Below the pieces are notes generated by a model that searched no databases, was not told the origin of the DNA, and saw only the letters and a list, made by a program, of their open reading frames with translations. Below are positions 4,759-50,154 of a stretch of 64,000 bases of DNA, in pieces; the first letter of the stretch is position 1, and every line of letters starts with the position of its first letter. The position numbers and the translations under genes are program-made. Origin of the DNA: Acidobacteriota bacterium (lineage in GTDB: Bacteria > Acidobacteriota > CAIWXX01); contig JBFMAF010000004.1 of NCBI GenBank assembly GCA_040755995.1, positions 32,001 to 96,000 of the forward strand. The letters run 5' to 3'.

Positions 4759-4844
4759 GGCTGATCGCAGTGGCGATATCGACCTCATCCTCGCTCATCC
4801 AGTCCCCTCTCTTCACCGCATGCTGCCAAAGCGCGGCAGAGGTG

Positions 4845-5234
4845 TCAACTCCCCATTCGTCTGTCCCCGTTCGGCACAGCCACCGATTCCGTCTGCGACC
4901 TATGGGAACGGCCCCACGCCGGGTCATCACCGTGGCCGACGACTTCAAGGATGTGACGAGCGGGATCCGCAAGGGCCGCGAACCGATCGGATTTGAGTTT
5001 CGCCACTTTCGTGGGCACCGGCAAGTAGCTTGTGGCTCGGTCGAGGAGTCGGGTGTAGATCCGCCCTCCACCGTCAGCACCGTAGAGCTCGATCCACTCA
5101 GCCAGAGCCGCAGACGCCTCGATGTTGATGCGCGCCATCTCCCCGTCGCTGATGCGACCGACATTCTCCGAGGTCACCTCGGGCAAGGCGCGAATGCAGT
5201 CAGATGTCGTCGCGAGAATCCTGAAACACATCAA
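4845..5234 (-). pseudogene. Fragment of a hypothetical protein (GRISDGEMARINIEASAALAEWIEL...)
   Basis: ORF track 129 aa. Its second copies (23369-23531, 26167-26297) differ largely at third codon positions in this frame, which supports a coding origin. The 5' end overlaps the IS91-like remnant. Confidence 0.5.
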
Positions 5235-5574
5235 ATACCATTTCGAGGTCCTCCAGCTCCCCGCTCGCGCCCCCCCCGTCTCATTCCTCTCCCCGGAGCC
5301 CCAGCCGGACCTTTCTGATTCCTATTACCTGTAGCCCCACTCACAGGTTCTGCCGCGAGAGCTCTGCCCGGCTTTCGGAAACACTTGACACAAAGGCACC
5401 TCAGCCCTACCCTCTAGCCGTGTCTTCCCCCAATCGCCGCAAGTTCATAGCCAAACGCGCCCATCCTCCGTCCCCGGGGACGGAGGATGGGTCTCTCTGC
5501 CGTTATCTCCATGCCGGAGTTACTACTTCAGTAGTATTTCCGCTCTCCGGTCGGAAAAGCAAGTTCTTATGTTC
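5195..5574 (+). mobile_element. IS91/ISCR-like rolling-circle element remnant (transposase C-terminus plus oriIS-like end)
   Basis: Plus-strand peptide VVARILKHI...PARAPP resembles the C-terminal tail of IS91-family transposases. It is followed by hairpins (5460-5491, 5521-5536) and AAAAGCAAGTTCTTAT then GTTC, resembling the TTCCTAT ori end and GTTC target tetranucleotide. Confidence 0.55.
5460..5491. repeat. Perfect 32-bp palindrome
   Basis: CCCATCCTCCGTCCCC|GGGGACGGAGGATGGG with no spacer. Confidence 0.95.
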
Positions 5575-5703
5575 ATCCTAGTAGTTAGTTTGGGCAATGA
5601 GTCAGGTACCAGCATGACCATGTGGGGAACAAAGCTTCGTGATGCGAGAGTGTAGTTCACGGAACATCGCCGCGGAACGGCGTGCAGGCAGCGGGAGGGT
5701 GCG

Positions 5704-7786: not shown

Positions 7787-8194
7787 GTGGCATGAGCGAA
7801 CACGAAGCGGCGGGCGCGTTTGGCGAGGCGGGGACGATAGCCGAGGTCGGTCTCGAGGTCGCGACGGCCTTTGCCGATGAGATGCCAGCCGACGTGCGCG
7901 GCACGCTCGGCGGTCGAGCCGCTTTCTGCGGCCAGGCGTGCGCTCTCGACCGCCCGCAGGGCCACGCGCAAATGCGCCTCTCCGGTGGGCTCGGCGAGCT
8001 CCTCCACGGCTTGCCGGTAGCGGTCCCGGCTCAGAAAGTCCATGTTACTGTACGCACCGGCCGGGTCGCGTTGCAGCACCCGCTCGACCGGGCTCACGTC
8101 TTCGAAGTACTGGCTCCAGTCGAGAGTGGAGCAGAGCCGGAGGCTGGTGATGACGTTCGCCACCGAGACCTGGGCTGCGGCCTGCCGCTGGTGC
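7787..8194 (-). pseudogene. Internal 408-bp fragment of cgs (third allele)
   Basis: Colinear with 3548-3955; about 13 mismatches by manual count, no start or stop of its own. Confidence 0.93.
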
Positions 8195-10893: not shown

Positions 10894-12071
10894 GACCGGG
10901 CTATTCGCTTACCGATCTTGGCATGCTCCCGTCTGAGTGGCAAGTTGATGAGCTCGGCTCTCTGGACCCATTCGTGACAAGTGGGTCCCGCGGTTGGGCC
11001 ACGTATTGCGCCGACAGTGGGGCGCCTTTCATTCGAATCACGAATCTGTCGCGCGACTCAATCTACATCGACCTGACCCATTTGAAGCTGGTGGACCTTC
11101 CTCCTGATGACCGAGAGGGCATCCGAACACGACTTGACGCCGGAGATCTGCTCTTCTCGATCACAGCTGACATCGGGATCGTCGGGTACGTTGACAGCCG
11201 CATACCGCGGCCAGCGTACATCAATCAGCATATAGCTCTCGTGCGGTTCGATAGGTCCAAGATCGACACGCAGTTCCTAGCCTACTTTCTGGCCGGCGCG
11301 AATGCGCAGAGGGTGTTCCGCGCGTCGACTGACCAAGGCGCCAAGGCCGGGATGAACCTTGCCGGAGTTCGGAAGATTAGAGCCGCATTCCCACCGCTCC
11401 CCGAACAATGTGCCATCGCGAAGGCGCTCGGGGATGTGGATGCGCTGCTGGGCGGGCTGGAGCGGCTGATCACCAAGAAGCGCGACCTCAAACAGGCTGC
11501 CATGCAGCAGCTCCTCACCGGCCAAACCCGCCTGCCCGGGTTTGGCGGCCAGTGGGAGGTGAGGCAGTTGAGGGACATTTGTCGGATGAAGAGCGGTGAA
11601 GGGATTACTAGCGCTGATATTGATGAGTATTCACCGTTTCCCTGCTATGGTGGCAATGGGCTGCGTGGATACACGAAGCGATTCACTCATGACGGGGACT
11701 ATGCCCTCATCGGGCGACAAGGCGCTTTATGCGGCAACGTGGTTCTCGCTGCGGGGAGCTTCTTCGCTTCCGAGCATGCTGTCGTGGTCACTGCGAACAG
11801 GCAAACGGACATTCACTGGCTATATCGAGTTCTCATCCGCATGAACTTGAACCAGTACACAGAGTCTACGGCCCAGCCCGGGCTATCGGTTGCCAAGTTG
11901 TTACTCCTTGAGTGCCCCGCCCCGTCTTATGAGGAACAAACCGCGATAGGCGCGGTGCTCTCCGACATGGACGCGGAGCTGGCGGCGCTGGAAGCGCGAC
12001 GTGACAAGACCCGGGCGCTCAAGCAGGCCATGATGCAGGAACTGCTCACCGGCAGGACGCGGCTCATATGA
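10884..12071 (+). CDS. hsdS: Type I R-M specificity subunit
   Basis: Two variable regions separated by conserved PPLPEQ..IA..L and KQAxMQxLLTG repeats; overlaps the hsdM stop. Confidence 0.96.
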   Translation: MEVRPGYSLTDLGMLPSEWQVDELGSLDPFVTSGSRGWATYCADSGAPFIRITNLSRDSIYIDLTHLKLVDLPPDDREGIRTRLDAGDLLFSITADIGIVGYVDSRIPRPAYINQHIALVRFDRSKIDTQFLAYFLAGANAQRVFRASTDQGAKAGMNLAGVRKIRAAFPPLPEQCAIAKALGDVDALLGGLERLITKKRDLKQAAMQQLLTGQTRLPGFGGQWEVRQLRDICRMKSGEGITSADIDEYSPFPCYGGNGLRGYTKRFTHDGDYALIGRQGALCGNVVLAAGSFFASEHAVVVTANRQTDIHWLYRVLIRMNLNQYTESTAQPGLSVAKLLLLECPAPSYEEQTAIGAVLSDMDAELAALEARRDKTRALKQAMMQELLTGRTRLI

Positions 12072-13486
12072 GAGAAGCTCACAACGTCGAATGGAAGGAG
12101 TCGTGGCGCGACGAGTATCTCCGCTGGATCTGCGGCTTCGCCAACGCCGAGGGCGGCGTGCTACACATCGGGCGGAACGAGAAGGGCGAAGTGGTCGGCC
12201 TGTCCCATGCGGCGAAGCTTCTGCAGGACATCCCGAACAAGGTGCGCGACATCCTCGGCATCCTCGTGAAGGTAAACCTGCGCACGCAGCGGGGCAAGGA
12301 GTGGCTGGAGATCGTCGTGGAGCCCTATCCCTACCCGGTGAGCTACAAGGGCGAGTACCACTTGCGCAGCGGGAGCACGAAGCAGGAGTTGAAGGGCGCG
12401 GCCCTGGACCGATTCCTGTTGCGCAAGCAGGGGCGCACCTGGGATGGAGTGCCGGTGCCCGGTGTGTCTCCCCGCGACTTGTCCAAGGAACCGATGGCGA
12501 CATTTCGCAAGTTGGCGAAGGATAGCCGCCGGCTGGACACCACGGCGTTGCGCGAGCCCGCCGCCGGGCTGCTCGACAAGCTCAACCTCTTCGATGGCGA
12601 TCGCCTCAAGCGCGCGGCGCTGTTGCTGTTTCATCCCGACCCCGAGCGTTTCGTCACCGGAGCGTTCGTGAAAATCGGCTATTTTCGTACCGAATCGGAG
12701 CTGCTCTACCACGACGAAGTGCATGGCGACCTGTTCACCCAGGCGCAGCAGACGATGGACCGATTGCTTACCAAGTATCTCAAGGCGGCGATCAGCTACC
12801 GGGGCATCCAGCGGGTGGAAGCGCTGCCTGTGCCGGAGGCGGCGCTGCGGGAGGCCCTGCTCAACGCAATCATCCACAAGGACTACGCCAGCGGATCGCC
12901 GATACAGATCCGGGTTTACGCAGACAAGCTGAAGATCTGGAACGCTGGAGAGCTGCCGGGCAACTGGACGGTCGAAGACTTGCGCAAGCACCACCCGTCA
13001 CGTCCGTTCAATCCATCCGTGGCCAACGCTTTCTTTCGTTCGGGGCAGATCGAAGCGTGGGGGCGAGGCTTCCAGCTTATCTTCGATGCCTGCCGGGAAG
13101 AGGGGGTGCCCGAGCCCGCGATCGGCTACCAGCCCGGTGACGTGTGGATTGAGTTCCCCTTCCGGGCCGCCTATCTGGCGGTGATCCCCACGGAGACCAC
13201 CGAAGTCGCCACCGAAGTCACCACCGAAGTCACCACCGAAGTCGCCGCCGCGAGGCGCCTCCTGGCCGCCCTGCGCGGAGAGATGAGTCGGCAAGCGCTG
13301 CAGGCCGCGCTGGGGCTGGCGAACGACACGCACTTCCGCAAAGCCTACCTGCAGCCTGCGCTGGCCGCGGGCTTGATTGAAATGACAATCCCCGAGAAGC
13401 CTACGAGCCGGATGCAGCGATACCGCCTGACGAAGAAGGGAAGCGCTGCACTGAAGGGCGGCGCCCAGAGTGGAGGCGAAATGTGA
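12068..13486 (+). CDS. AlbA_2 (Schlafen-like) DNA-binding domain + ATP-binding domain + C-terminal HTH protein
   Basis: N-terminal ExxxVEWK...CGFANAEGG, central REALLNAIIHKDY and IEAWGRG, C-terminal YLQPAL...IEMTIPEKPTSRMQRY. Translationally coupled on both sides. Confidence 0.88.
   Translation: MREAHNVEWKESWRDEYLRWICGFANAEGGVLHIGRNEKGEVVGLSHAAKLLQDIPNKVRDILGILVKVNLRTQRGKEWLEIVVEPYPYPVSYKGEYHLRSGSTKQELKGAALDRFLLRKQGRTWDGVPVPGVSPRDLSKEPMATFRKLAKDSRRLDTTALREPAAGLLDKLNLFDGDRLKRAALLLFHPDPERFVTGAFVKIGYFRTESELLYHDEVHGDLFTQAQQTMDRLLTKYLKAAISYRGIQRVEALPVPEAALREALLNAIIHKDYASGSPIQIRVYADKLKIWNAGELPGNWTVEDLRKHHPSRPFNPSVANAFFRSGQIEAWGRGFQLIFDACREEGVPEPAIGYQPGDVWIEFPFRAAYLAVIPTETTEVATEVTTEVTTEVAAARRLLAALRGEMSRQALQAALGLANDTHFRKAYLQPALAAGLIEMTIPEKPTSRMQRYRLTKKGSAALKGGAQSGGEM
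13196..13243 (+). repeat. 4 x 12-bp in-frame tandem repeat (T/A-T-E-V linker)
   Basis: (A/G)CCACCGAAGTC x4. Confidence 0.95.
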
Positions 13487-16400
13487 GTGCCATCGGCAAG
13501 CCCGAACGTGTCACGCAAGACCGCGTTATTGCGCTCTTTCGCAAGAACCTCGGCTACCGCTACCTTGGCAACCGGACTGACAGCGAGAACCGCCATATCG
13601 ACGAAGACCTGCTCGCGGATTGGTTGAAGGGTCGCGGCCTTTCCCCGGAACGGATCAGCCGCGCGCTGGACATCTTCAGTCGCGAGGCCAACAACCCCGC
13701 TCGCAGCCTCTACGACAACAACCAGGCCGTCTACAGCCTGCTGCGCTACGGCGTTCCGGTGAAGACAGCAGCCGACGAGAACACCGAAACCGTCTGGCTC
13801 ATCGACTGGCGCAACCCGGAGGCCAATGATTTAGCGCTGGCCGAGGAAGTGACCCTGAAGGGCACGCACGAGAGGCGGCCGGACCTGGTCCTTTACGTCA
13901 ACGGTCTTGCCGTCGGTGTGATCGAATTGAAGCGCAGCGCCGTGAGCATCGGCGACGGCATCCGCCAGCTCATTTCGAATCAGTCGCCGGAGTTCAACGC
14001 ATGGTTCTTCAGCACCGTGCAAATCGTCTTCGCCGGCAACGACAGCGAAGGGCTGCGCTACGGGGCCATCGGCACGCCGGAGAAGATGTTCCTCGCCTGG
14101 AAAGAAGACGAGGCCGACAACGCCGGCTACAAGCTCGACAAGTACCTTCTGAAGCTCTGCAACAAGTCGCGCCTGATCGAGCTGATGCGGGACTTCGTGC
14201 TTTTCGACGGCGGCGTGAAGAAGCTGCCGCGCGTGCATCAGTATTTCGGTGTCAAGGCCGCGCAGCGCCACGCGCGCGAGTACAAAGGCGGGATCATCTG
14301 GCACACCCAGGGCAGCGGCAAGAGCATCGTCATGGTGCTGCTCGCCAAGTGGATTCTCGAGAATCTCCCGAAAGCGCGCGTGCTGATCGTCACCGACCGC
14401 GAGGAGCTCGACAAGCAGATCGAGCGAGTTTTCCAGGGAGGGGGCGAAGCCATCTACCGTACCCGGAGCGGGGCGGACCTCATGGCGCAGCTCGGTCAGG
14501 CAAAGCCGCGCCTGCTCTGTTCCCTCGTGCACAAGTTCGGCCGGAGAGGGGTGGAGAACTTCGATGCGTTCATCGAGGAGCTGAAGCAGAAGCCCAGTCC
14601 CGCCGTTGGCGAGCTATTCATTTTCGTGGACGAGTGCCATCGCACGCAGAGCGGCAAGTTGCACAAGACGATGAAGGCGCTGCTACCAGGAGCGGTGTTC
14701 ATCGGCTTCACCGGCACGCCGCTGCTGAAGGCCGACCGGCAGACCAGCCTGGAGGTTTTCGGCGGCTACATCCACACGTACAAGTTCGGGGAGGCGGTGG
14801 AGGACGGCGTCGTGCTTGATCTCGTCTACGAGGCCCGTGACATCCCGCAGGAGCTCGGTTCCCAGGACAAGGTCGACCAGTGGTTTGACGTGAAGACCAA
14901 AGGACTGAATGACTGGCAGAAGGCGGTCTTGCGCGAACAGTGGGGCACGATGCAGAAGGTGCTGAGCTCACGCTCGCGCATGGAACGCGTGGTCGAGGAC
15001 ATCGTCTTCGACTTCAGCGTCAAGCCCCGACTGGCGAGCCAGCGGGGCAACGCGATGCTCGTGGCCTCCAGCATCTACGAAGCATGCCGCTACTTCGAGC
15101 TGTTCGAGAAGACCGCATTCAAGGGCCGTTGCGCCGTCATCACGTCCTACGATCCGAAAGCACAGGACGTGACCAAAGAGGACACCGGCGCGAATACTGA
15201 GACCGAGAAACAGTTCCTCTACAATGCGTACACTGCCCTGCTGAAGGACGTCGTGCCGAAGCCCGGCAAGACAAAGACTGAGACCTACGAGGACGAGGCG
15301 AAGGAGAAGTTCGTCAAGCAGCCGGCCAGCATGCAGCTGCTCATCGTGGTGGACAAACTGCTCACCGGTTTCGACGCGCCGAGCTGCACCTATCTCTACA
15401 TCGACAAGTCCATGCAGGACCATGGCCTGTTCCAGTCCATCTGCCGCACCAACCGGCTCGACGGGGAAGACAAGCCCTTCGGTTACATCGTGGACTACAA
15501 GGACCTCTTCAAAAAGGTGCAGGGTGCGATGGCCGTATACACGTCCGAGCTCGACACGGCCGACGGCGGCGTGAGCCCGGAGATCCTGCTGGGGGACCGG
15601 CTGGCCAAGGGCCGCGAGCGGCTGGAGGAGGCGCGCGAGGCTCTCGCGTTGCTGTGCGAACAGGTGCAGCCTCCGAAGAGTGACCTGGAGCAGATCCACT
15701 ATTTCTGCGGCAATACCGAGATCACAGACGATCTGGCGCAACACGAACCGCAACGAGTCGCGCTCTACAAGGGTGTGGCGTCGCTGGTGCGCGCCTATGC
15801 GTCCATCGCCGACAACCTCCCGGAAGCAGGCTACTCGGTAGTCGAGGCCAGAGCCATCGAGAAGGAGCTTGCGCGCGCTGTCGAGCTACGCGAGGCGATA
15901 CGCAGGGCGAGCGGCGAAACGCTCGACCTGAAGCCATACGAAGCCGACATGCGTCACCTGATCGACACCTACATCAAAGCGGAAGAGGCGCGCAAGATAT
16001 CGGACTTCGGTGAGATGGGCTTGCTCGATCTGATCGTGAAGAGCGGCATCGCCGAAGCGATCAACAGCCTCCCCAAGGGCATCAGGGGCGACCGGGACGC
16101 GGTTGCCGAGACGATTGGCAACAACGTGCGCAGCAAGATCATCCGCGAACATCTTCACGATCCGGCCTTCTACGACAAGATGTCCAGGCTGCTCGCCGAG
16201 GTGCTGGCCGACCTGAAGGCACGGCGCATCGACTACGAGGAATTCCTGAAGCGCGTGGCCGCGCTGGCCGCGCAGGTCCATGCCGGCAGGGCGGCCGACA
16301 CACCGGAGGCACTGAGGCGGAGCCGGGGGCTTCGAGCCATCTACAACCTGCTGGAATCTCCACCATCGAATCGAGCCGGTGAGGGCGAGCCGGCCTACGA

Positions 16401-16593
16401 GGGCATAGCGTCAACCAAGAGGCTGGATCTCGCGCAAAGCATCGATACGAAACTTCGTGGAAGTGCCCCTGATGGATGGCGCGGCGTGCTGGCCAAGGAG
16501 CAGGTGGTGAAGCACCTCATCTACGATGTGGTGCAGGACATTGCACTGGTCGAGCAGCTATTCCCAGTGATCAAGGCGCAAGCGGAATACTGA
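13483..16593 (+). CDS. hsdR: Type I R-M restriction subunit
   Basis: PD..IELK nuclease motif, HTQGSGKS Walker A, DECH box, FTGTP, LTGFD, QSICRTNR. Confidence 0.97.
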   Translation: MSAIGKPERVTQDRVIALFRKNLGYRYLGNRTDSENRHIDEDLLADWLKGRGLSPERISRALDIFSREANNPARSLYDNNQAVYSLLRYGVPVKTAADENTETVWLIDWRNPEANDLALAEEVTLKGTHERRPDLVLYVNGLAVGVIELKRSAVSIGDGIRQLISNQSPEFNAWFFSTVQIVFAGNDSEGLRYGAIGTPEKMFLAWKEDEADNAGYKLDKYLLKLCNKSRLIELMRDFVLFDGGVKKLPRVHQYFGVKAAQRHAREYKGGIIWHTQGSGKSIVMVLLAKWILENLPKARVLIVTDREELDKQIERVFQGGGEAIYRTRSGADLMAQLGQAKPRLLCSLVHKFGRRGVENFDAFIEELKQKPSPAVGELFIFVDECHRTQSGKLHKTMKALLPGAVFIGFTGTPLLKADRQTSLEVFGGYIHTYKFGEAVEDGVVLDLVYEARDIPQELGSQDKVDQWFDVKTKGLNDWQKAVLREQWGTMQKVLSSRSRMERVVEDIVFDFSVKPRLASQRGNAMLVASSIYEACRYFELFEKTAFKGRCAVITSYDPKAQDVTKEDTGANTETEKQFLYNAYTALLKDVVPKPGKTKTETYEDEAKEKFVKQPASMQLLIVVDKLLTGFDAPSCTYLYIDKSMQDHGLFQSICRTNRLDGEDKPFGYIVDYKDLFKKVQGAMAVYTSELDTADGGVSPEILLGDRLAKGRERLEEAREALALLCEQVQPPKSDLEQIHYFCGNTEITDDLAQHEPQRVALYKGVASLVRAYASIADNLPEAGYSVVEARAIEKELARAVELREAIRRASGETLDLKPYEADMRHLIDTYIKAEEARKISDFGEMGLLDLIVKSGIAEAINSLPKGIRGDRDAVAETIGNNVRSKIIREHLHDPAFYDKMSRLLAEVLADLKARRIDYEEFLKRVAALAAQVHAGRAADTPEALRRSRGLRAIYNLLESPPSNRAGEGEPAYEGIASTKRLDLAQSIDTKLRGSAPDGWRGVLAKEQVVKHLIYDVVQDIALVEQLFPVIKAQAEY

Positions 16594-16604
16594 CGGGTGT
16601 TGCG

Positions 16605-17309
16605 GTGCAGTTGGGCGAGATCCGCATCGAGGTGCGGCGCAAGGACATCAGAAATGTCCACCTGAGCGTCCATCCCCCGTCCGGGCGGGTACGCATCGCT
16701 GCGCCGCGGCACCTGAGCGACGACGCCATCCGGTCTTTCGCTATCGGCAGGCTCGGATGGATTCGGAAACAACAGAAGAAACTGCAGGAGCAGGAACGTG
16801 AGACGCAGCGCGAGTACCTCGATCGCGAGACTCACTACGTGTGGGGCCGCCGCTGCTTGCTCAGGGTCGTCGAAAGGCAAGCGCCTCCGTCGGTCGAGTG
16901 GCGGGCCCACCGGTTGACGCTCTGCCTGCGACCGGGCACTGGGACCGCCCGACGCGCTGGGTTACTGGAGGCGTGGTACCGTGCACAAGTCAGGAAAGCC
17001 GCAGCGCCGATCGTCGCCAAGTGGGAAGGTCTCATGGGTGTCACCGTGAGCAGGGTCTTCGTTCGGCGGATGAAGACCAAATGGGGGAGCTGCAATCACT
17101 CCGCTGGCAACATCCGCCTGAACACCGACCTCGCCAAGAAGCCGCGGCAGTGCCTCGAGTACCTTGTCGTCCACGAGCTGGCGCATCTGCTGGAACGGAC
17201 GCACAACGTGCGCTTCCTGGCGCTGATGGACCGGTTTCTTCCCTCGTGGAGATCCGTCCGCCTGGATCTCAACCGCCTGCCCGTTCGGCACGAGAACTGG
17301 GAATACTGA
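16605..17309 (+). CDS. YgjP/DUF45 (M48/SprT-like) metal-dependent hydrolase
   Basis: MKTKWGSC and VVHELAHL..H zinc motif; usual position after hsdR. Start uncertain (CTG 16590 or GTG 16605). Confidence 0.9.
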   Translation: MQLGEIRIEVRRKDIRNVHLSVHPPSGRVRIAAPRHLSDDAIRSFAIGRLGWIRKQQKKLQEQERETQREYLDRETHYVWGRRCLLRVVERQAPPSVEWRAHRLTLCLRPGTGTARRAGLLEAWYRAQVRKAAAPIVAKWEGLMGVTVSRVFVRRMKTKWGSCNHSAGNIRLNTDLAKKPRQCLEYLVVHELAHLLERTHNVRFLALMDRFLPSWRSVRLDLNRLPVRHENWEY

Positions 17310-17349
17310 CCCACTGCAGCGAAGCGCCCGAAGCTCGGTACTCGGGAGA

Positions 17350-18051
17350 TCACCTGCGCCCGGCAAAGAGCTCCGGCTTCATCGTGCGCAGCGATGTGTA
17401 GCACGAGCTCCCGAGCACGATGTGGTCCAGGAAGCGCAGGCCGGCGGCGGTGAGCGCGCATGCCACGGCGGCCGTCAGGGCTTCGTCCGCCCCAGAGGGC
17501 GCCGGATCGCCAGATGGGTGGTTGTGTGCGATCAGGACGGCCGAGGCGCGCACGGCCAGAGCGCGTTCGAGGATCTTGCGCGGGCGGAGCATAGCCTCGT
17601 CCGGGGTCCCACCCGCGATCACCTCGTGCGCGAGCACGCCGTTCTTCGCATCGAGAAAGAGCAGGTGCACCTGTTCCTCGCGGTCCTCGACCAGGAACTG
17701 TCCAAGGTAGCTTGCAGCGTCTTCAGCCGATGCAATGCGCAGGCGCGTGCAGCGCCGTTCGGGTCGTGATGCCTCGGACCGCAGAGCCGATGCCAGGCGG
17801 AGCAGCACGAGCGCTGACGGGCCCAGACCCGGAACCTGGAGCAGAACTTCGTCCGGTGCGCCGAGGACGCCTGACATGCTCCCGCACTCGGCAAGCAATC
17901 GCTTGGCCAAGGGCTTCACGTCGCGCCTGGGAATAGCATATGTGAGCAGCAGCTCGATCAGCTCATGGTCGGAGAACGCACCTGCCCCGCAGCTCAGAAA
18001 TCGCTTGCGAAGGCGATCCCTGTGGCCTGATGTATCTACAGCGTCTTTCAT
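17350..18051 (-). CDS. radC: RadC family JAB-domain protein
   Basis: GHRDRLR, ELIELLL, AHNHPSGDPAPSGAD, LDHIV. ATG 18051 chosen for its RBS. Confidence 0.95.
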   Translation of the reverse strand: MKDAVDTSGHRDRLRKRFLSCGAGAFSDHELIELLLTYAIPRRDVKPLAKRLLAECGSMSGVLGAPDEVLLQVPGLGPSALVLLRLASALRSEASRPERRCTRLRIASAEDAASYLGQFLVEDREEQVHLLFLDAKNGVLAHEVIAGGTPDEAMLRPRKILERALAVRASAVLIAHNHPSGDPAPSGADEALTAAVACALTAAGLRFLDHIVLGSSCYTSLRTMKPELFAGRR

Positions 18052-18194
18052 GTTCCTACCGGCTCTGTTGGGCGGGAGACATTGTAGCACCGATACCATG
18101 CAGGAGCGCGACCTCCCGCAGGGGGGCTCGCGTCAGCTCCGCCTGATCAACATTCCCATCAGATGGCACCGCGCGGGGGCGGAATGATGTTCCA

Positions 18195-18307
18195 TCGTGT
18201 TCGATCCGCTCCATCGAGGCCAGCAGCATTATCGGTTTGTGTGGTGCCTTGAGCCCTTGCATCCGCCCTACGCCCGGCGCGCGCCTGATTGATGCCAGTC
18301 TCTCGCA
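18195..18307 (-). pseudogene. N-terminal relic of an SBD (sulfur-binding domain)/HNH restriction endonuclease
   Basis: Frame reads CERLASIRRAPGVGRMQGLKAPHKPIMLLASMERIE; APHKP-hydrophobic is the typical N-terminal signature of that family. No HNH domain seen. Confidence 0.6.
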
Positions 18308-20567
18308 GGTCCTGGTACGTGTCCGACACGGCGGTCGTGTAGGGGTCGACTCCGGTGTGGCCGGCGTAAAGGCGAGCGAAGAGCGAGCCCGCGGCGCTCG
18401 ACATCGTCACGCTGACGCGCGGCTGCAAGATCCCGTAGCCTTCGGTCACGCGGTCGCGGTGCGGGTCGAAGTGAGGGCGGTTCAACGGGTGGGCGATAAT
18501 CCCGATCAGCTTCTTCGCGGCGTCGCGCGGCAGGCGCGTGTCGGAGTCGAGGGTGATACAGTAGCGCACGCTGGGGAGGATCGCCGGATCGCCGACCTGT
18601 ATCTGGTAGCTCGTGTCCGCGGCCCCTCGCAACAGGCGATTGAACTCCTCGATCTTCCCGCGCTTGCGCTCCCAGCCCATCCACACGCTCTCCATTGCGT
18701 TCCACTGTCGCACGCGATGGAAGAGATAGAACCGGTCCGATCGCCCTTCGCCGAACCGGACATTCAGGGCATCAATGCCGGCCTTGGCAGCGGAAAGGAT
18801 CGCGTCGTCTTGCGGCATCTCGCGAGCGGGAGCGTCGGCGAAGTCGCCAAGGATCGCGAAGTGGATGCGCGAATCGAGGTTCCCGAGAGCCAGGACCTCG
18901 ACGTGCTCGATCAGCTTGTTCACTTCGGCAACACTCGTCAGCAGCGTGGGCACGACGACCATGGTCCGTGCGTTCTCGGGGATTCCCGCCCGGAGCTCGA
19001 TGCGCGGGAGGCGCCGCGGCGGTGCCAGACGAACGACCAGGCGCTGGACAAAGGCGATGGCCACCTCGCTCGATGGCAGCAGCAGGAGCAACGCCACACC
19101 TATCTGTGCCCAAACTGATCCGCCCTGGTAGCGGGCGTAGGCGAGCCCGAGGCCGAGCAGAAAGGCTGTCACGAATGAGATCGATCCAAGGTAGGCGCAA
19201 GTGGCATGCGCGAAGACGAAGCGGCGGGCCCGTTTGGCGAGGCGGGGACGATAGGCGAGGTCGGTCTCGAGGTCGCGACGGCCTTTGCCGATGAGATGCC
19301 AGCCGACGTGCGCGGCACGCTCGGCAGTCGAGCCGCTTTCTGCTGCAAGGCGTGCGCTCTCGACCGCCCGCAGGGCCACGCGCAATTGCGCCTCGCCGGT
19401 GGGCTCGGCGAGCTCCTCCACGGCTTGCCGGTAGCGGTCCCGGCTCAGAAAGTCCATGTTGCTGTACGCACCGGCCGGGTCGCGTTGGAGCACCCGCTCG
19501 ACCGGGCTCACGTCTTCGAAGTACTGGCTCCAGTCGAGAGTGGAGCATAGCCGGAGGCTGGTGATGACGTTGGCCACCGAGACCTGGGCTGCGGCCTGCC
19601 GCTGGTGCTCGCTCCGGATCGCGTCCTCCGAGGTCATGTTCTGGGCGGCCAGGTGCTCGTCGACGGCCAGGCGGACAGCCGAAAGGCGCGGGCCGTACTC
19701 GCGCATGAGTTGGAGGAGCTGCACGACGTAGGCCGTGTGGAGGACCGGCGGCAACGGCCGCGGCGCCTTGCGCGGGCCATTGTCGATCTGCGCGACATAG
19801 GCGTCGGCGGCCCGGCGAGCCTCGTGGGATTCGAGCATCTCCTCCGCCAGCCGCCGCAGATTCTCGATCAGCGCCAGCTTCAGCCCTGGCCGGCGATGAG
19901 GGCGCATCTGCTGCGTCGCCCGCGTCGCTGCGGTGCTCACGTACAAGGGCGTACGCTGCGCTCCTCGCTCCTTGGCTCCTTGCAACTGCACCCTTCTCGC
20001 CGGCCAGGGTGCGTTGTTGCGGGATTAAGGTTCAGGCATGCTCGGCCATGCCCACAGCTCGCCGATCGTCAGCGGGGCCACTGTCTGGTAGCTGTTCATG
20101 AAGCGCAGGAGCTGTTGCCGGTCCAGGCGGCTGTCGCTGTGGCGAATGAGCTCGACGGCCATGGCGTAGACACGGGCGTGGCCCGCCAGCTCGCGCAGGG
20201 CGAGCTTGGGCAGCTCACGGTAGTAGCCGCGCGGGAGATTGTGGCGGATATCCCGGATCTCCGAGGCCACGAGGTGGAAGTTGTCGAGGAGCCACTCGGC
20301 CGCCGGCGGAACGAACTCCCCCTTGTGCACATCGTCTGCCATGGTGCGGTAGGCTTCGCGCAGGAGGCGAGCGTTGTCGTCGAATCGCGGGAAGACATTC
20401 CGCGCCATGCGCCGCGGATTCGGGTGGACCGTGAATCGTGCCGCGAGGGCCTTGGCCCTCTCTTCCAGCCGCTCGATGCTCAGCAGCTCGTCGCGCAGGG
20501 GCTTCTCGGCCCTCGGCGGCTGACGGCCTCCGAGCAGACTGAATAGCGCCTTGAACGTCTCAACCAC
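18306..20567 (-). pseudogene. Second, 3'-truncated cgs copy interrupted by a 153-bp insertion
   Basis: 18306-19883 is colinear with 2653-4230 and 20037-20571 with 4231-4762 (one 3-bp indel). Differences are mostly synonymous; the insertion brings an in-frame TAA. Confidence 0.95.
19884..20036. mobile_element. MITE/REPIN-like palindromic insertion (153 bp)
   Basis: Absent from the intact cgs at 4230/4231. About 28-bp imperfect inverted repeats CCCTGGCCGGCGA...TCGCCGGCCAGGG (19884-20009) with a nested palindrome around GTAC..GTAC, plus a 27-bp tail. Confidence 0.8.
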
Positions 20568-20918
20568 GGCTACGCCTGCTCACCGGCCGTACACGTTGAG
20601 CGGCTATTCTTGGGTCCCGGGTCTGGCACTAGGCACATCCTACTCTTGGCGCTGCCTGCGGGCTCATGTCGTAGAGTAAGGGATACCTGCACAGAGCAGC
20701 TGGCCTATTCCTAATCCTATACTACTTTGGCTGACTCTGTGAACGATGTCGCATCGCGTGGGACCCGGAGCCTCCTGGATGTCCAGCTGCTTCATTACAC
20801 TTTCTGAATCGGGGGGGCCGGGGCGTGAGAAGCCGGCGGGCACTTCTTGCGGAAAGAAACGCTGCGTGTCTTGTTGGTGTGGATGGGCTGAGTCGATATG
20901 GCCTCCTTGCCTGGCAGG

Positions 20919-21170
20919 TTGATTTTCCTCAAGGATGCGGTACATCGTGCGGATCGAGCAGAAGTAGCTACCCTCATCGAGCGGCCTGGCGTAGGCCTCG
21001 GCCGGAGCCTTGTGCACGAAGCGCTCCGAATGCAGGGCATCGAGGACCTGGTGTCTCTCAGCAGGAGTGAGCGCGCGCTCCGGGATCGGGCGTGGTGTTG
21101 GTACAGGCTGGGTCCGACGGCGACGGTAAGCCGTGGCTCGCGCCACGCTCAGGCCGGCGCCGATGCAATG
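20919..21170 (-). mobile_element. IS3-family transposase remnant
   Basis: RALTPAERHQVLDALHSERFVHKAPAEAYA..LDEGSYFCSIRTMYRIL matches the OrfB N-terminus of an IS3-family group. No DDE core or ends found. Confidence 0.75.
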
Positions 21171-21643
21171 GCGGGAGGTTCGCTCACTCGGCGATACGCC
21201 ATGGTGACGGCCGAGGGACTTCGCGCCAATCGCCGTCCGATCTCGACACAGGATTGAGCTGCAGGTCCCTCGTCCCAAGCGAATACCTTCCGAGCCATGA
21301 CAACTCGTGACGAGAAGAGAAGACAGGCTGAGCGGAATTCAACGACGCGAGAACGCTACCCCAGGAACCTGGATCTGCCGTATTGGGGGACGCATGTCGT
21401 AAGGGAAATCCTCTTGCGCCGGGATCCACGACGGGAGGGACGGAAGTAGGAATTGCTGGCCTACATCCTCAACCCGAACGGTCCCCCGCTGGACGTTTCC
21501 AATCCGGAACGACTGGCATTTCTCCTCTGATGTTCTCGCGAATTCGTAAGGAGACAGCCCGTGAACGTCCATCCACTCAGAGTTTCCAAGCGGCCCCATC
21601 TGCCTCATAGCGTGTCCCTTGCGGCTAAAACGTAGCACACCAC

Positions 21644-22771
21644 CTAGGCCTTCGCAACCAGGGGGAGTGGGGAGAGGGAGATCCTCCTCCACCGGGCTTC
21701 CTCGTCAGTCATGGATAATCTGATTTCGCCAGATGGCAGGCGAGCAGCAGATACCTTACCACTCGAACGAAATTCGGCGGCGACTCGTGGGCCCTCAATG
21801 ATGGCGTTCACGATGGAATAGGCAACCTCCACCCCGGAACACTGGGAGTTTTGGAGAGCTCGATTCACCGCAGCATTCCACACCTGCTCAGCCACCTGAG
21901 GCGGAGTGTTCGCAGGTAGCAAGAGGGGGGCTGAGGGCGTAAGGGAGGCGGCGGCTCTTGGGTCAGAGAGGAACAGCGCGAGAGGGTTGAACGGAATCCG
22001 CAACTCCATGTAGTCCTCGATCCCCAAGTACGCATCCCAGAGAAGCTTCTCAAGGACAGGGTCGGGCCCGGCTACCTGCAGATCAAGCTTGCGCGCACGC
22101 TTTCTCGTCACAGCGTCACCGTGGGCAAAGAAACTCTTGTTCAAGTTCAGAGCAATTTGTCTTGCCTTGCGATCATCGTCGAGATGCGTCGAGAGTAGGC
22201 GCTCCCCGACCTCTGCAGACAACTCGCTCGCCCGCTTGGCAGCACCAACGATCAGCGGATCCATAGCCGAAAAGAGCTTCTCCACCACCGTGGTCACGTG
22301 TTGCTGCTCAGTCAAACGAACATCGTGATGGAGGAAGCTGAGAAAAGCCCCCATGTCTTCGTAGGCGAATTGCCGGGCAGTGCCATCGGGGAGTCTGACC
22401 GCGATCTGGGGGTCGATAGGGCCGAGTGACGCGTATGGATGCATCACGATCTCGTCGGCTCCGAGCGAGAATACAGTGGCTGCACTGAAGGCCGCAAAAG
22501 GAACGAGAACCCCGATCTTGACAAACCGCTCGCGTAGGGTGGCCATGAGCTTCCAGGCGGTCAACGCGTCACCGCCCATGCTGTTGATAAGCACGTCAAT
22601 CGCATCGATTCCCAGAGGAATCGCCTCCACTTGATCAATGAATTCACGCACAGCATCGCCCGCCATTGCAGCCCGGACACCAGCGCGCGTCGAGGTGGCG
22701 TAAACGATCAACGGGCGCTTTCGGTAGTCCTCGATTGCTGTGTAACGCTGAATACGTTCCTCGATCTTCAA
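21644..22771 (-). CDS. SDH-family Clp-fold serine proteinase-like protein
   Basis: IDVLINSMGGD, VPFAAFSAAT, ADEIVM..YASLGPIDPQ, later FFAHGDAV. Confidence 0.85.
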   Translation of the reverse strand: MKIEERIQRYTAIEDYRKRPLIVYATSTRAGVRAAMAGDAVREFIDQVEAIPLGIDAIDVLINSMGGDALTAWKLMATLRERFVKIGVLVPFAAFSAATVFSLGADEIVMHPYASLGPIDPQIAVRLPDGTARQFAYEDMGAFLSFLHHDVRLTEQQHVTTVVEKLFSAMDPLIVGAAKRASELSAEVGERLLSTHLDDDRKARQIALNLNKSFFAHGDAVTRKRARKLDLQVAGPDPVLEKLLWDAYLGIEDYMELRIPFNPLALFLSDPRAAASLTPSAPLLLPANTPPQVAEQVWNAAVNRALQNSQCSGVEVAYSIVNAIIEGPRVAAEFRSSGKVSAARLPSGEIRLSMTDEEARWRRISLSPLPLVAKA

Positions 22772-23331
22772 CCCCGTGCCTTCCTCTCAAACTGCGTGAA
22801 TATGGTGGTCGACAACCAACAGCAACTACAGACTACTGAAATCGCGTCGGATTTGTCAATGACTACAAAGACTGCCGAGGGACGCCACCGTCGTAATGAC
22901 ATCCCCACGCGGACGGGGCGAGCGTCTCAGGCTCCGACCCAGGAACGGGTCTCCATCGAGCTTGAAAGGGCACGGCTGCGCACGCCCCCGCCCGATGGAA
23001 ACTCCGCCCAGGTGCCCGCTCCGGTTCTCTGGATCGCATCTGCACATTTCATGCTAGCCCGCCATCACGAGTCAATTCGGCCGAAACACGAATCAATCCG
23101 CTGGCTAGCAGGTTTCCGTCATACGAGAACCTTGGTCCATCACGCCAGTTCGTCTCCGCGTCCTGGTGGTGCAACCGTGCCCGGCCGCGCCAAGGCTCTC
23201 ATGTTCGCTCCGACCCTTTGCGTGGCGCCCACAGGGGCCTTGACGCGTCCCCTGGGCGAACAGATTTCAAGGCGCGGAGCAAAATCACGGCCGAGTGTTC
23301 GAATTCAAGGCGTCATCGATGATCATCAGCT

Positions 23332-23369
23332 GTAGAGCCCCTTGCCAGCGAAGATCCCCTCACCGAACA
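23332..23369 (-). pseudogene. 38-bp cgs fragment (FGEGIFAGKGLY)
   Basis: Matches 2617-2654 with two synonymous changes. It is exactly the sequence that should continue the truncated copy beyond 18306. Confidence 0.85.
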
Positions 23370-23531
23370 TGTGACGAGCGTGATCCCCAAGGGCCGCGAA
23401 GCGATCAGACTTGAGCTTCGCCACTTTCGTGGGCATCGGCAAGTAGCTGATGGCTCGATCGACGAGTCGCGTGTAGATCCGCCCTCCACCGTCAGCACGG
23501 TAGAGCTCGATCAACTCAGCCAGAGCCGCAG
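23369..23531 (-). repeat. Diverged direct copy of 4951-5113
   Basis: 163-bp ungapped alignment by eye. Confidence 0.93.
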
Positions 23532-23539
23532 CGAGCCCC

Positions 23540-23688
23540 TCCATCGCCGGGATGTGCACACACGCTGCAACCTCGGCGGACGTCATCGGTGGGCCATCGA
23601 ATCCGGGTTTCTCGTCGAGAGGCGTCATGGCTGTAACTACGAACACTGCTTCTCGTTCGACTGGAAAGCCATGAAGGGATATCACTAA
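23540..23688 (+). mobile_element. DDE transposase remnant (IS4-superfamily/ISNCY-like C-terminal region)
   Basis: RCNLGGRHRWAIESGFLVERRHGCNYEHCFSFDWKAMKGYH contains the R-W-x-I-E catalytic glutamate motif. Confidence 0.65.
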
Positions 23689-23908
23689 TGCCGCACGAGT
23701 GTTCCAGAGTGAGCGTGAGTCACATGAAGCCAATTACTACGCTATGTTGACTGCGGCCGACGAGGCCGGCGAAATGGCTCGCATTCCGCGAAAGGAACAT
23801 ACATTGCGAGACGCCGAGGAGCCCGAGGTAAGTGATGACGCCCCGGAGCGTTCGCTTGCCGAGCGCCGATTCGCTTGCCGTGGACGGTCCTCCTGATGGT
23901 GAGATTGG

Positions 23909-25546
23909 CTAGCCCGAGCGCTCGGCCTGGGCGAGCAAGTCAACGATCGCGGCATGGCCCAAAGTCTGAGCCCATTGACGTGCCGTCTCACCCTTTTCAT
24001 CACGTGCGTGCGGATCAGCGCCCGCATAAAGCAGCAGTCGTACCGCATCTTCTTTCCCGGAACGGGCCGCCTGCATCAGAGCCGTAGAGCCGTATTGAGA
24101 TTTCAGGCCCACGTTTGCCCGGGCATCGATAAGCACACGCGCGACTGCCGCACTTCCCTTGACCATCATCAGGGCCGTTTCACCGGAGTTGTTCACGGCA
24201 TCGACATCCGCTCCGCCGGTAACGAGCGCCTGCACAATGTCCGCTTTTCCGTCCAGTGCTGCAGACATCAAGGCGGTCGCCCCGACATTGTTGCGCGCGT
24301 TGGCATTTGCGCCATGGCTCAGCAGGAACTCTATATCCGTTGGCTTCCCTCTACTGGCGGCTGTCATTAGCGCGGTGAAACCGAGCGACTGCTTCGCGTT
24401 GACATCGGCGCCGTCCTTCACTGCAGCGATCGCAGCATCAACATCACCGTTGTCGACCGCTTCGAGCAATCTTCGTGTGGCTTCTTCAGTCATGCGCTGG
24501 CCGGGAGGCGCCGCAGGCTTTGCGGCACTTGCTGCGCGGTAGCGGATCCGCGCCGTCGCCGGCGTCACGAGATCCGCGAACTGCTTGACACGCCACATTA
24601 CCTGCACCTCCACGTAGTATGTTCTGGGCTTTCTGCCAATTCCGAGGAATCCGGAGGAGCCTTTCTGCACGCACTCGTACTTTCGGATCGAGATGTCCTC
24701 CCACGGCACGTCGTCGAACTGCGAGCGCACCTGTTCCCTAATGAGATTGCCGACCTGCGCTTCGTTGTTCGCACGGCTGAGGTCCAGGTTCATTTCCAGG
24801 GATCGAATAGTCCCTTGTCGAATTATCTCCCGATCCGTGACTATCTCACCCCGGGCAAAGCACTTCCTCGCCCGCTCCGTAGCTTCATCCGCCGTGCTCC
24901 CGCTGCCTGTGGCACAGACTCGCTTTGTATTGCCGGGCACCGCCTCTTCCGACTGAATCTCTGCACCGGCCGGCAGCAGTGCCCGTCCAGCCTGAAGAGC
25001 CTCTTCGGGCGACGCGCCCGATGCGACTTGCTCCTGGGGCACACGCGCCAGCACGGAGGCATTGAAGGCCTGATCGTGCCCTACAATGCTGTAAACGTGC
25101 TCGTCGAACAGTTTGCCATAGGAATCGAAGCTCTCGCCGCATGCCAGGCAGCGGTAACTCTGCGACTTCAGCCCCTCGCTCAAGAAGAATTCGACAACCA
25201 TTGCCGATCCGAGCAGGCGCTCAAATCCTGGGAAACGCTTTGACGGCCACTCTTTCCAATCGTCTTGCGGTGGCAACCCGACGGATCTGAAATAGTCATA
25301 CCATGACCAGGTATGGTCCAGCGGCTTCGGCAGCTCGGGGACGCGGAAGCCAGTGCCAATAAACATTAGAATGCTGTACCCACAGCCGTCGCGTATCAAA
25401 GCTACCGCTGACTTCAGTGGAATCGGGACTTCATTGTTCAGCATGGCCAAGTAGACATATCGTGCTGTTTCCTCATTGCGAAACTCGAATAGCTGGACAT
25501 AGTGAAGCTCGTCGCGATCTATCATCGACCTCAGAATCTCGCTCAT
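23909..25546 (-). CDS. Ankyrin-repeat protein with C2H2-like zinc finger and Jag_N-like middle region
   Basis: About five C-terminal GxTALMxAA repeats, CLAC-x12-H motif, KGSSGFLGIGRKP motif. RBS AGGAGGGG. Confidence 0.85.
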   Translation of the reverse strand: MSEILRSMIDRDELHYVQLFEFRNEETARYVYLAMLNNEVPIPLKSAVALIRDGCGYSILMFIGTGFRVPELPKPLDHTWSWYDYFRSVGLPPQDDWKEWPSKRFPGFERLLGSAMVVEFFLSEGLKSQSYRCLACGESFDSYGKLFDEHVYSIVGHDQAFNASVLARVPQEQVASGASPEEALQAGRALLPAGAEIQSEEAVPGNTKRVCATGSGSTADEATERARKCFARGEIVTDREIIRQGTIRSLEMNLDLSRANNEAQVGNLIREQVRSQFDDVPWEDISIRKYECVQKGSSGFLGIGRKPRTYYVEVQVMWRVKQFADLVTPATARIRYRAASAAKPAAPPGQRMTEEATRRLLEAVDNGDVDAAIAAVKDGADVNAKQSLGFTALMTAASRGKPTDIEFLLSHGANANARNNVGATALMSAALDGKADIVQALVTGGADVDAVNNSGETALMMVKGSAAVARVLIDARANVGLKSQYGSTALMQAARSGKEDAVRLLLYAGADPHARDEKGETARQWAQTLGHAAIVDLLAQAERSG

Positions 25547-26166
25547 TGCCCCTCCTATCTCACCGGCCTGGAAAGTCTGCTTGACATGCTTAAAATGTAG
25601 GACGAGACGATTGAAGCGTCAAGCTCATGTGGATTTTCGGATGAAGTTGAGAGAGCGCTCGCTGAAGACGTTGAAGGGCTATGCCCAAGCTCACATGTTG
25701 AGCAAACGCGTCGACAGCCCAAGCTTCGGGAGGCTGCAGCATCTCATAATGATGCGATCCGGGCTGCTCCAACGCATCAAAGAACTCGTCCAAGCCGACG
25801 TAGTCAAGTAGTGACTTCTTGCTCCATGCCCGTTGCGGATCGGGCACTGACTGGAATTTGGGGGCAATCATGGGTACATCTCCATGAATGACGACGTGTC
25901 GATGAAAGGAAAAAGGTCGACGGCAGTGGGGTCACTGGACTCCGATGAGCGCGGGCAACCCACAATCGCATGATACTCGGCAAGATACGCCACCATAATG
26001 CACTCCTGGTACTCGGCGGGAACGTTTGCGAACTGCGGCTCGATCGCGAGCGCGGCGAGCTTGAGTAGCAGGGACGCGAACAGCCCAACAGGAATCTTTC
26101 TACATCTTAACCAAATCAGGCGCATCCAGCCCCGTTCTGCCGACTACTCCAAACGCGAATGCCTAC

Positions 26167-26297
26167 GAGGTGTCAACTCCCCATTCGTGCGTCCCCATTC
26201 GGCACAGCCACCGATTCCGTCTACGACCCATGGGAACGGCCCCATGCCGGGTCATCACTGTGGCCGACGACCTCCAGGATATGACGAGGGGGATCCG
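26167..26297 (-). repeat. Diverged direct copy of 4839-4969
   Basis: 131-bp ungapped alignment by eye. Confidence 0.93.
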
Positions 26298-26356
26298 GCA
26301 GACCGCACCCTGAATGCGTCCCGGGGGGTGCGCCGGCAAAAGATCATTTTCGCCCC

Positions 26357-26399: not shown

Positions 26400-26445
26400 G
26401 TTATATAACCGCGTCGGAACGAAGCCGGGATGCAAAGGAGTGGGC

Positions 26446-27093
26446 ATGCCAAGGACAGGCGGTGAGAAGACGCGCAGACGGATACTGGAGGTCGCGGAGA
26501 GGCTCTTTGCCGAAAAGGGCTTCAGTGCGACCAGCGTGAACCAGATCGCCCGCCATGCCCGCGTGAACAAGGCGCTGATCTATTACCACTTCAAGGACAA
26601 GAGGGATCTCATCCTCAAGCTCTTCACGAGCATCATGGACGAGCTCGGCCAGAAGCCCCATGCGCCCGCAGACACGAGTCCTGCCGGGGATTCGGGACCC
26701 GGTCTGAAGCAGGAGATGCGGAAGGAGCTCGAGTTCCTGGCGAGCCGGGGGAGGATCCTCTCCCTGATGCTCGCGGAGGCCCTGCGCACTGCGGATCGTG
26801 ACGATTACCTCTTCCGCTGTGCCGAGATGGTGGCGGAGCGCGAACATCCCGGAGCCGAGGAGACCGGCGGGAAAGGACGGCGGCGCCCGGGGCAGCGCGG
26901 CCTGACCCGGGAGCAGCAGCGGTACTGGGTCCATGAATTCTTCACGGGGTTCATTCCGGTGATCGCCTTCTCCGCGCTGCGCGAAAAATGGTGCCGGTAT
27001 TTTCAAGCCGATCCCGCGTCGGTGCAGGAGCACTTTCTCGATGCGTTCGAGAGCACTCACGTGGCGTCGCAGCTGAAACGCCCGCGGGCGTGA
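26446..27093 (+). CDS. TetR/AcrR family transcriptional regulator
   Basis: RILEVAERLFAEKGF...IARHARVNKALIYYHFKDK HTH. RBS AAGGAG. Confidence 0.95.
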   Translation: MPRTGGEKTRRRILEVAERLFAEKGFSATSVNQIARHARVNKALIYYHFKDKRDLILKLFTSIMDELGQKPHAPADTSPAGDSGPGLKQEMRKELEFLASRGRILSLMLAEALRTADRDDYLFRCAEMVAEREHPGAEETGGKGRRRPGQRGLTREQQRYWVHEFFTGFIPVIAFSALREKWCRYFQADPASVQEHFLDAFESTHVASQLKRPRA

Positions 27094-28350: not shown

Positions 28351-28377
28351 CGTCCTACGAGCGGAATCCTGACACTA

Positions 28378-28433
28378 GCGAGGCGGGGCCTCAGACCGAT
28401 GAACCATGCCAGGCCGCTTTGGCCCCGCCTCGC
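28378..28433. repeat. 13-bp inverted repeat after the operon (terminator- or REP-like)
   Basis: GCGAGGCGGGGCC ... GGCCCCGCCTCGC. Confidence 0.6.
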
Positions 28434-28577
28434 GTCGAGAGTCGACAGTCGAGAGTTGGGAGTGACTACCGTGGGAATTCAGAGCCAATGACGCGACGTG
28501 GCAAACTTGACTCAATCGCAACATTTTTTTCCCCTGAAGCCCGCTAGGCGCTAACGCGCCTAGATGGCAAGACCCCG

Positions 28578-49987: not shown

Positions 49988-50154
49988 ATCATCCGCCGGC
50001 GGCTCTCCACAGCGCGACTCATGTCGCGCTGTATGACGGGCCTCCGCCGTGCCGAGCCAGAACTGTCACCCGGGGATCAAAGAACAAGTTGAGTCCACCA
50101 TGGCAGTTCTGGTACTATCGGTCCCTGGTTGCTTTCGCAAAAGGAGAGGGTCTT

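Follow-up and report, generated by a model that had tools for sequence, protein, structure and literature searches.

Integron cassette arrays and tRNA-site islands carry tandem cargo units at a single locus. Cargo has also accumulated, in an Acidobacteriota bacterium, around a gene that we take to encode a cyclic beta-1,2-glucan synthase-like protein (cgs; the name follows the original prediction made from this DNA), but this locus has no attC core, tRNA, shared attachment (att) core or integrase, and the ends of its units differ each time. We analysed it within a 64,000-nucleotide stretch, hereafter the window (positions 32,001 to 96,000 of the forward strand of contig JBFMAF010000004.1, assembly GCA_040755995.1); coordinates without a prefix count from its first letter. 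The source genome (G000) comprises 7.7 Mb in 56 contigs, of which C4 holds the window, and G001 denotes a genome of the same family and another genus. The original prediction had interpreted two adjacent blocks (block 1, 18306-23369; block 2, 23369-26297) as two DNA circles integrated in tandem at one site.

Several described systems come closer. For the effector-immunity arrays of Rhs and type VI secretion system (T6SS) loci, an anchor combined with an illegitimate join has been proposed (PMC5361080). These arrays resemble the cgs locus in that a conserved anchor is paired with one non-homologous join, incoming DNA lands beside the functional gene and old ends are pushed outward, with no integrase shown (PMC5361080). 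In contrast to those arrays, cgs is a metabolic housekeeping anchor that is stacked on both sides, its displaced pieces are the 5′ half and the promoter, and its cargo (a restriction-modification (RM) system, a protease and an ankyrin protein) is unrelated to the anchor gene. Two features of displacement arrays recur at cgs: an intact gene with nearby direct partial copies that alternate with foreign genes, and displaced copies that are probably alleles of other lineages (ratios of nonsynonymous to synonymous divergence, dN/dS, of 0.10-0.22, and no stops).

In complex class 1 integrons carrying ISCR1, a circle that recombines homologously generates partial duplications (PMC7707992). As at cgs, a partial direct duplicate surrounds the cargo, which is separated from the intact copy by an IS91-family end (PMC7707992); unlike them, the cgs locus has no integron, no tetranucleotide enrichment and no intact genomic transposase, and most of its units lack an IS91 end. 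In transformation-induced merodiploids of Streptococcus pneumoniae, incoming linear DNA can give rise to direct duplication by unequal crossover (PMC3784515), and the parallel with cgs is that tandem duplication and a popped-out circle give the same new junction. However, the pneumococcal events are repeat-mediated at both crossovers and leave identical, unstable duplicates, whereas cgs would combine one non-homologous join with diverged alleles. The insertions of yeast region B have permuted ends with 2-3-nt microhomology, as does block 1 alone, but they occur in several permutations at unrelated sites, whereas the cgs locus is one instance beside its own homologous gene (PMC3053389). No such stack at a housekeeping gene was found in the literature searched, which left out most subscription papers.

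Layout of the cgs stack

The cgs region consists of the intact gene and, upstream of it, five fragments that duplicate parts of its front end and promoter region and alternate with blocks of cargo. On balance, we consider it probable that this stack grew as DNA from sister lineages was inserted repeatedly, with homology as the anchor and with displacement of the existing gene end each time, and that deletions contributed as well. Every repeat listed in the original prediction is real and was recovered by self-BLAST and ungapped alignments; the prediction had overlooked a fifth copy, at 7787-8194, as well as two stretches to the left of the window (C4:26012-27227 and C4:21756-22612) that each duplicate part of the cgs 3′ end. 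All copies are direct and local.

Intact cgs (1-4761, minus strand) runs left past the window to C4:28505, a frame of 2763 codons without stops. Donor segments within and upstream of the gene are named a (2617-2654), b (2653-4762), p (4763-4850), c (4851-4969) and d (4965-5184). The minus-strand segment p is the promoter and start segment ahead of intact cgs; it resembles C49:28384-28464 and takes the same form in loose ends from X1 and X3, two of six runs of other studies (X1-X6) whose contigs were compared, out of 11 candidate runs with shares no higher than 0.12. These are mixed-sample contigs of relatives and do not come from the source sample. On C49 the matching sequence is the promoter of an unrelated gene together with its initial codons, and the stop of a short open reading frame (ORF) overlaps the cgs start region. 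Segment c (plus strand) matches part of a gene that is intact from C17:14140 onwards and presumably transglutaminase-like, and d is a fragment of a minus-strand ORF like that found from C9:77150 onwards. The cgs frame starts at about 4761 and runs leftwards, and the stretch 4839-5113, which the original prediction had taken for cgs, belongs to the mosaic of p, c and d above it.

Outward from c lie an internally deleted IS91-family element, an S9 peptidase gene (5704-7734, plus strand; PF00326, E 1e-44) and e′, a displaced minus-strand cgs fragment (7787-8194, equivalent to 3548-3955; 395/408 positions identical). Type I RM genes (PADLOC MTase_I, Specificity_I and REase_I), two further ORFs and radC (PF04002) occupy 8434-18099. 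The displaced 5′ half of cgs, b′ (18306-20571, minus strand, equivalent to 2653-4762), is interrupted by a 143-bp insert; on either side of it, 18306-19884 and 20028-20571 match the donor at 93.8-97% identity (self-BLAST, ungapped alignment), and the sequence upstream of b′ differs from the p of intact cgs. The adjoining cargo block Q1 (20572-23331) holds an alternative cgs upstream region, a transposase-like relic (a weak HTH_32 match, E 0.017) and an SDH/ClpP-like protease gene (21644-22771, minus strand; PF01972, E 6e-16). It is followed by a′ (23332-23369, minus strand, equivalent to 2617-2654; 36/38 identical) and by c″d′ (23369-23531), a copy of 4951-5113 with a derived c|d join (149/163 identical). 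A further cargo block (23532-26166) carries another transposase-like relic, an ankyrin protein gene (23909-25546, minus strand) and other DNA; its relic, at about 23535-23687, resembles sequence from C24:367604 onwards. Both the protease and the ankyrin repeats are present as originally described. Beyond it lies c′ (26167-26303, plus strand), our oldest inferred anchor, in which 26167-26297 copies 4839-4969, including the last 12 bp of p (120/131 identical), and the remainder is native continuation. A tetR-family gene (26440-27093, plus strand; PF00440, E 2e-18) forms the right flank of the stack.

Circular permutation, claimed originally for both blocks, holds formally for block 1. Joining a′ to b′ yields an in-frame cgs peptide (...VSDTYQDLFGEGIFAGKG...) as in the intact gene, with CA shared. 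The end of a′ at donor 2654 and the start of b′ at 2653 coincide almost exactly; when five fragments are placed at random, 2-4% of placements bring an end and a start into such near-exact abutment (-2 to +3 bp), and 10-18% give an overlap within 26 bp. There is no second copy of the block 1 unit elsewhere in G000, and joints leading from 23367 back to 18306 in contigs of the other runs are simply the native cgs of relatives. The protease has 18 distant relatives (31-64%) across phyla in other genomes, none of which (0/18) lies near cgs. Just left of a′ (23308-23331), beyond a palindrome-rich 17-bp patch, is an 8-bp match to donor 2603-2610, and a′ may start at donor 2603 instead of 2617.

A genome-wide search for permuted pairs, from which high-copy repeats and matches below 80% had been removed, returned 16 abutting pairs within -6 to +8 bp, a density of about 1.1 per bp that no other bin approached (maximum 0.26). 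We reject this excess as support for circles, since mosaic donors and repeat arrays produce it. The search established no second clean case of a circularly permuted block: the C22/C11 pair, fully examined, has a mosaic donor, and the cases in C55 and C23:77-90k lie in repeat arrays. A candidate second permuted block of 3.3 kb is located at C23:265252-268531, its ends abutting at C23:254715/254716 with zero overlap.

For block 2 the permutation fails, its right end being native. No joint lies at 26297, where c′ continues to match the intact C17 gene to about 26303, and contigs of X1 and X5 (two studies) run on past 26303 with letters that, by eye, fit the same gene. What is derived is instead the c|d join within the donor (about 4965-4969), at which an ATCCG microhomology with the d gene of G001 is visible by eye. 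The imperfect direct repeat of about 19 bp, formerly seen as joining the ends of block 2, is the overlap of two separate copies and is about 90% identical, like the rest. At 23369 the a′|c″ joint keeps donor order and equals a deletion of donor 2655-4950; it reads simply as a plain 2.3-kb deletion. What survives of the two circles is their content (5062 bp and about 2910 bp), which corresponds to two insertion units of our favoured model, whereas successive short-core integration at one site is not supported. A circle-like unit was a fair idea, since this model needs the same DNA content.

The 143-bp insert in b′ (19885-20027) resembles a miniature inverted-repeat transposable element. It has a 9-bp imperfect flanking repeat, occurs at 14 other places in G000 and is missing from the cgs of relatives in contigs of the other runs. 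Elsewhere in the window, a repeat of about 190 bp at 28367-28563 and 63933-63998 has dozens of genome-wide copies, many of them at contig ends, and direct repeats of 37-55 bp are found at 50372-50897 within the ORF at 49888-51498.

Divergence of the displaced copies

The left part of b′ differs from intact cgs by 96 changes, 68 of which are at third codon positions (dS 0.18, dN 0.028, dN/dS 0.15 over 522 codons), and the right part by 14 changes, eight of them at third positions. For e′ the proportion is 12/13 (dS 0.11, dN/dS 0.10), and the 3′ copies have dN/dS values of 0.22 and 0.20, with dS of 0.25 and then 0.30 outward. No stops occur in the truncated cgs copies tested for dN/dS. This pattern shows that the testable copies are former working alleles that diverged under purifying selection (dN/dS 0.10-0.22), and not decayed local duplicates. 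Selection of this kind cannot act on the copies in their present truncated state, so they would have diverged while they still belonged to functional genes, and sister lineages are the simplest setting for this. Identity falls roughly outward from the intact gene (e′ 96.8%, b′ 93.8-97%, a′ 94.7%, c″d′ 91.4%, c′ 91.6%). When the donor, b′ and e′ were compared three ways, donor-like (8), b′-like (8) and unique (5) sites alternated along the sequence, and no usable crossover point emerged.

Each cgs 3′ copy carries its own cargo, restriction-type and radical-SAM-type ORFs as judged by eye, and a single frame of 1522 codons takes in both the farther copy and a protease-like gene downstream of it. 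Across the genome, codon-phase bias (p<0.01) is present in 25/59 local direct duplicates of at least 250 bp, representing 12 loci, in a set where partial copies and paralogues are not separated. In the sat array of G000, 5/6 pairs are codon-biased. An array of transposase relics on C55, which we take to be IS110-like, shows the bias in 0/16 duplicates, and because of this lack of codon bias it appears to have had a different, neutral history. At C55:221953-240320, relic fragments alternate with defence-type cargo.

Anchored insertion as the probable origin, and its rivals

Under anchored insertion, each incoming piece would comprise part of cgs, or of p-c, together with the upstream cargo of a sister strain. 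One end would recombine via that homology and the other would form a non-homologous join; the intact gene would gain new upstream DNA, and the old end would be pushed outward. Entry could be as a closed circle or by unequal crossover between sister chromosomes, with the same product either way. The oldest arrangement would have been cgs-p-c-tetR. A unit of p-c|d, relic and ankyrin gene, the second of the originally proposed circles, would then have entered through the 131-bp p-c anchor, followed by a unit of cgs 2617-4762 and Q1, the first of those circles, through 2.1 kb of cgs. The displaced copy would have lost 2655-4950, creating the 23369 joint and leaving stubs of 38 and 18 bp. Next, a unit reaching from cgs 2653 to radC would have entered, and after it one that extends from cgs 3548 as far as the S9 peptidase, with later trimming of its displaced copy. 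Five such nested, anchor-guided insertions and deletions would account for every fragment without any need for an integrase or att site. The repeats, the codon bias and the native continuation of c′ are observed, whereas we infer the homologous crossover, the order of events and the form of entry, whether by circle or by unequal linear integration. An intact ComEC-family gene is present in G000, so DNA uptake is possible.

The lack of an attC, a tRNA att site and an integrase, which had been noted originally, is confirmed. The attC core motif is GTTRRRY, and this core was found within 20 bp of 0/10 joints, with no folding or covariance model run. None of the 20 PF00589 (tyrosine-recombinase) matches in G000 lies on C4, serine recombinases not having been searched for. 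The window contains no tRNA or tmRNA, and an Rfam scan of it gave 0 matches. Unit boundaries have no common att core; the fragment ends all differ and have no motif in common.

Several joints also occur in contigs of relatives. The 18306 joint is bridged by an X5 contig (18147-18683), the 23531 joint in X1, X3 and X6, and the passage from c′ to tetR by an X1 contig (26246-27103) with 58 bp of c before c|tetR; 23332, 23369 and the cargo side of 26167 are unbridged among the pieces listed. Letters before 26167 in X1 and X3 are the donor's p, which agrees with cgs-p-c as the initial arrangement. At several joints, short contigs of relatives continue differently, with no whole relative locus among them. 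X1 and X5 have no cover over the protease and ankyrin cargo, which would fit anchored insertion and is not used as evidence. Sequence matching 2400-5700 was found in 15/41 genomes, G000 included. The two same-family genomes have no orthologous stack, the cgs piece of G001 being a short broken fragment, and a metagenome pattern scan for c gave one match, unrelated by BLAST.

The IS91-family element (4965-5570, plus strand) comprises the minus-strand ORF d fragment, a transposase C-terminus and an oriIS-like end, and is followed by GTTC at 5571-5574. In G001 the d ORF lies about 170-300 bp from an intact transposase (PF14319, E 9e-19; PF04986, E 4e-10), to which 5185-5322 has a 59% tblastn match. 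The right end of the element recurs at more than 10 places in G000, mostly with GTTC- or GTCC-like letters after it, and GTCC and GTTC are IS91-family targets (PMC13181058). At cgs the oriIS-like end, assigned by its position and target, sits beside cargo with a GTTC target; no such end occurs in blocks 1 and 2 or within the sat, C16 and C55 arrays. G000 has no intact transposase by tblastn with the G001 protein, which gave fragments only; a PF04986 search gave 0 matches, but its control likewise gave 0, so it is uninformative by itself. Because IS91 tetranucleotides are not enriched at fragment ends (13/55 against a 22% background, p = 0.45), a role for the element as circle-maker is possible and unproven. 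Traces of IS91 chemistry at the joints (GAAC 2650-2653, CAAG 4946-4949 and GTCC 18309, on both strands) were considered and rejected, with offsets of 1-3 nt and no enrichment, and the left end of d was dropped as a terIS, as d runs on natively in C9 and G001. Among IS91-type ends, a perfect 32-bp palindrome lies at 5460-5491, with relatives at C41:162-573, C18:30424-30744, C52:108612-108828 and other places. The passenger ORF d is conserved and has no Pfam family, and intact elements exist in G001.

A number of points weigh against anchored insertion. It leaves the meeting of the 2654 deletion end with the 2653 start of b′ to chance (2-4% at the locus). The p-c anchor is short, at 131 bp, with a longest perfect tract today of 25 bp, and events that combine an anchor with an illegitimate join are orders of magnitude rarer than ordinary recombination (PMC5361080). 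No intermediate state was seen whole in a comparison set from which same-genus genomes are absent, and the order of events follows from parsimony only. The mixed-sample run contigs represent relatives rather than the source, and two of their pieces are too short to count: the one with the joint 20571-26167 in X2, which has 27 letters on its short side, and the one that crosses 20571 in X1, also with 27 letters. At the 12 other codon-biased loci, the duplicates may be partial copies or full paralogues.

The abutment at 2653/2654 is better served by a hybrid scheme, in which block 2 came in via the p-c anchor and a single reciprocal crossover at CA produced both the 18306 joint and the 23369 joint. 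The crossover would represent either integration of a circle of cgs and protease or excision, from a duplicated copy, of a 15.6-kb circle that then re-entered via cgs homology. The two ends do share CA within a demonstrably native frame, with a chance of 2-4%, and permuted insertions at yeast region B show 2-3-nt microhomology (PMC3053389). However, the scheme requires a second site that coincides exactly with an older derived joint or is brought to it by deletion, so that this reading and anchored insertion each involve one coincidence. Recombination through its 2.1 kb of cgs homology would also be expected of such a circle, no second clean permuted case was established genome-wide, and one match among about 12 loci is, by rough estimate, near chance; we regard the hybrid as possible but unlikely. 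The original scheme, in which two circles were added successively at a single att-like position via short cores (CA and 19 bp), is very unlikely, although both blocks are formally excisable as circles and the two tight coincidences together arise in only 0.2-0.6% of random placements. Its two cores share no motif and are accompanied by no attC motif, tRNA or integrase on the contig, and the native end of block 2 means that its second coincidence is not independent. The 58 bp of c in the X1 contig exceed the 18-bp core predicted for an empty site. Moreover, two unrelated circles anchored in the same 2.5-kb stretch would have had to land non-homologously 13-18 kb from their own homology, e′ and the cgs 3′ copies are ignored, and 0/18 protease relatives are linked to cgs.

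An ISCR-like route would instead have an IS91-family element make circles by one-ended rolling-circle transposition into cgs, with re-entry by homologous recombination. The order cgs-b, element, oriIS-like end|GTTC, cargo and partial b′ mirrors the 3′ conserved segment (3′-CS), ISCR1, cargo and partial 3′-CS of complex integrons (PMC7707992), GTCC, an IS91-family target like GTTC, lies 3 bp from the b′ start (PMC13181058), and G001 has intact transposases. This route is nevertheless distinctly unlikely, given the unenriched tetranucleotides at fragment ends (13/55 vs 22%, p = 0.45), the lack of an oriIS-like end in blocks 1 and 2 and the sat, C16 and C55 arrays, and transposases that survive in G000 as relics only. 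Local tandem duplication with neutral decay and deletion, in line with the direct and local position of every copy, is extremely unlikely. The original prediction had offered tandem duplication with independent deletions as its alternative, and for the cgs copies codon-biased divergence rules it out: the truncated copies retain dN/dS of 0.10-0.22 and no stops, whereas the relic array on C55 has no codon bias (0/16). Misassembly or chimeric reads would be the least credible source of the stack. Joints 23332 and 23369 and the cargo side of 26167 do rest on one assembly, but the copies differ by 3-9% in a codon-biased manner, and contigs that stem from three studies bridge the joints at 18306 (X5), 23531 (X1, X3 and X6) and about 26304 (X1).

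Probable integrase-free gene gain at a housekeeping gene

Toxin arrays and resistance integrons are the usual settings in which genes are held to accumulate additively with no integrase involved. At cgs the footprint of such gain surrounds an ordinary metabolic gene, on both sides, and includes defence-type cargo in the form of a type I RM system. As a single locus, cgs is a clear but modest example, and the type of mechanism has precedents. Codon-biased divergence offers a simple sequence test for telling imported alleles from local duplicates. We speculate, as a doubtful proposition, that integrase-free accretion extends across this genome, with circles made of a core-gene piece and a neighbour strain's cargo, possibly cut by IS91-type rolling-circle transposases, being stacked like cassettes at about a dozen housekeeping genes, and with cgs 2653/2654 serving as a re-used crossover point. 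If additive gain of this type were true across those dozen or so loci, displaced gene ends would date and order the acquisition of cargo in uncultured lineages.

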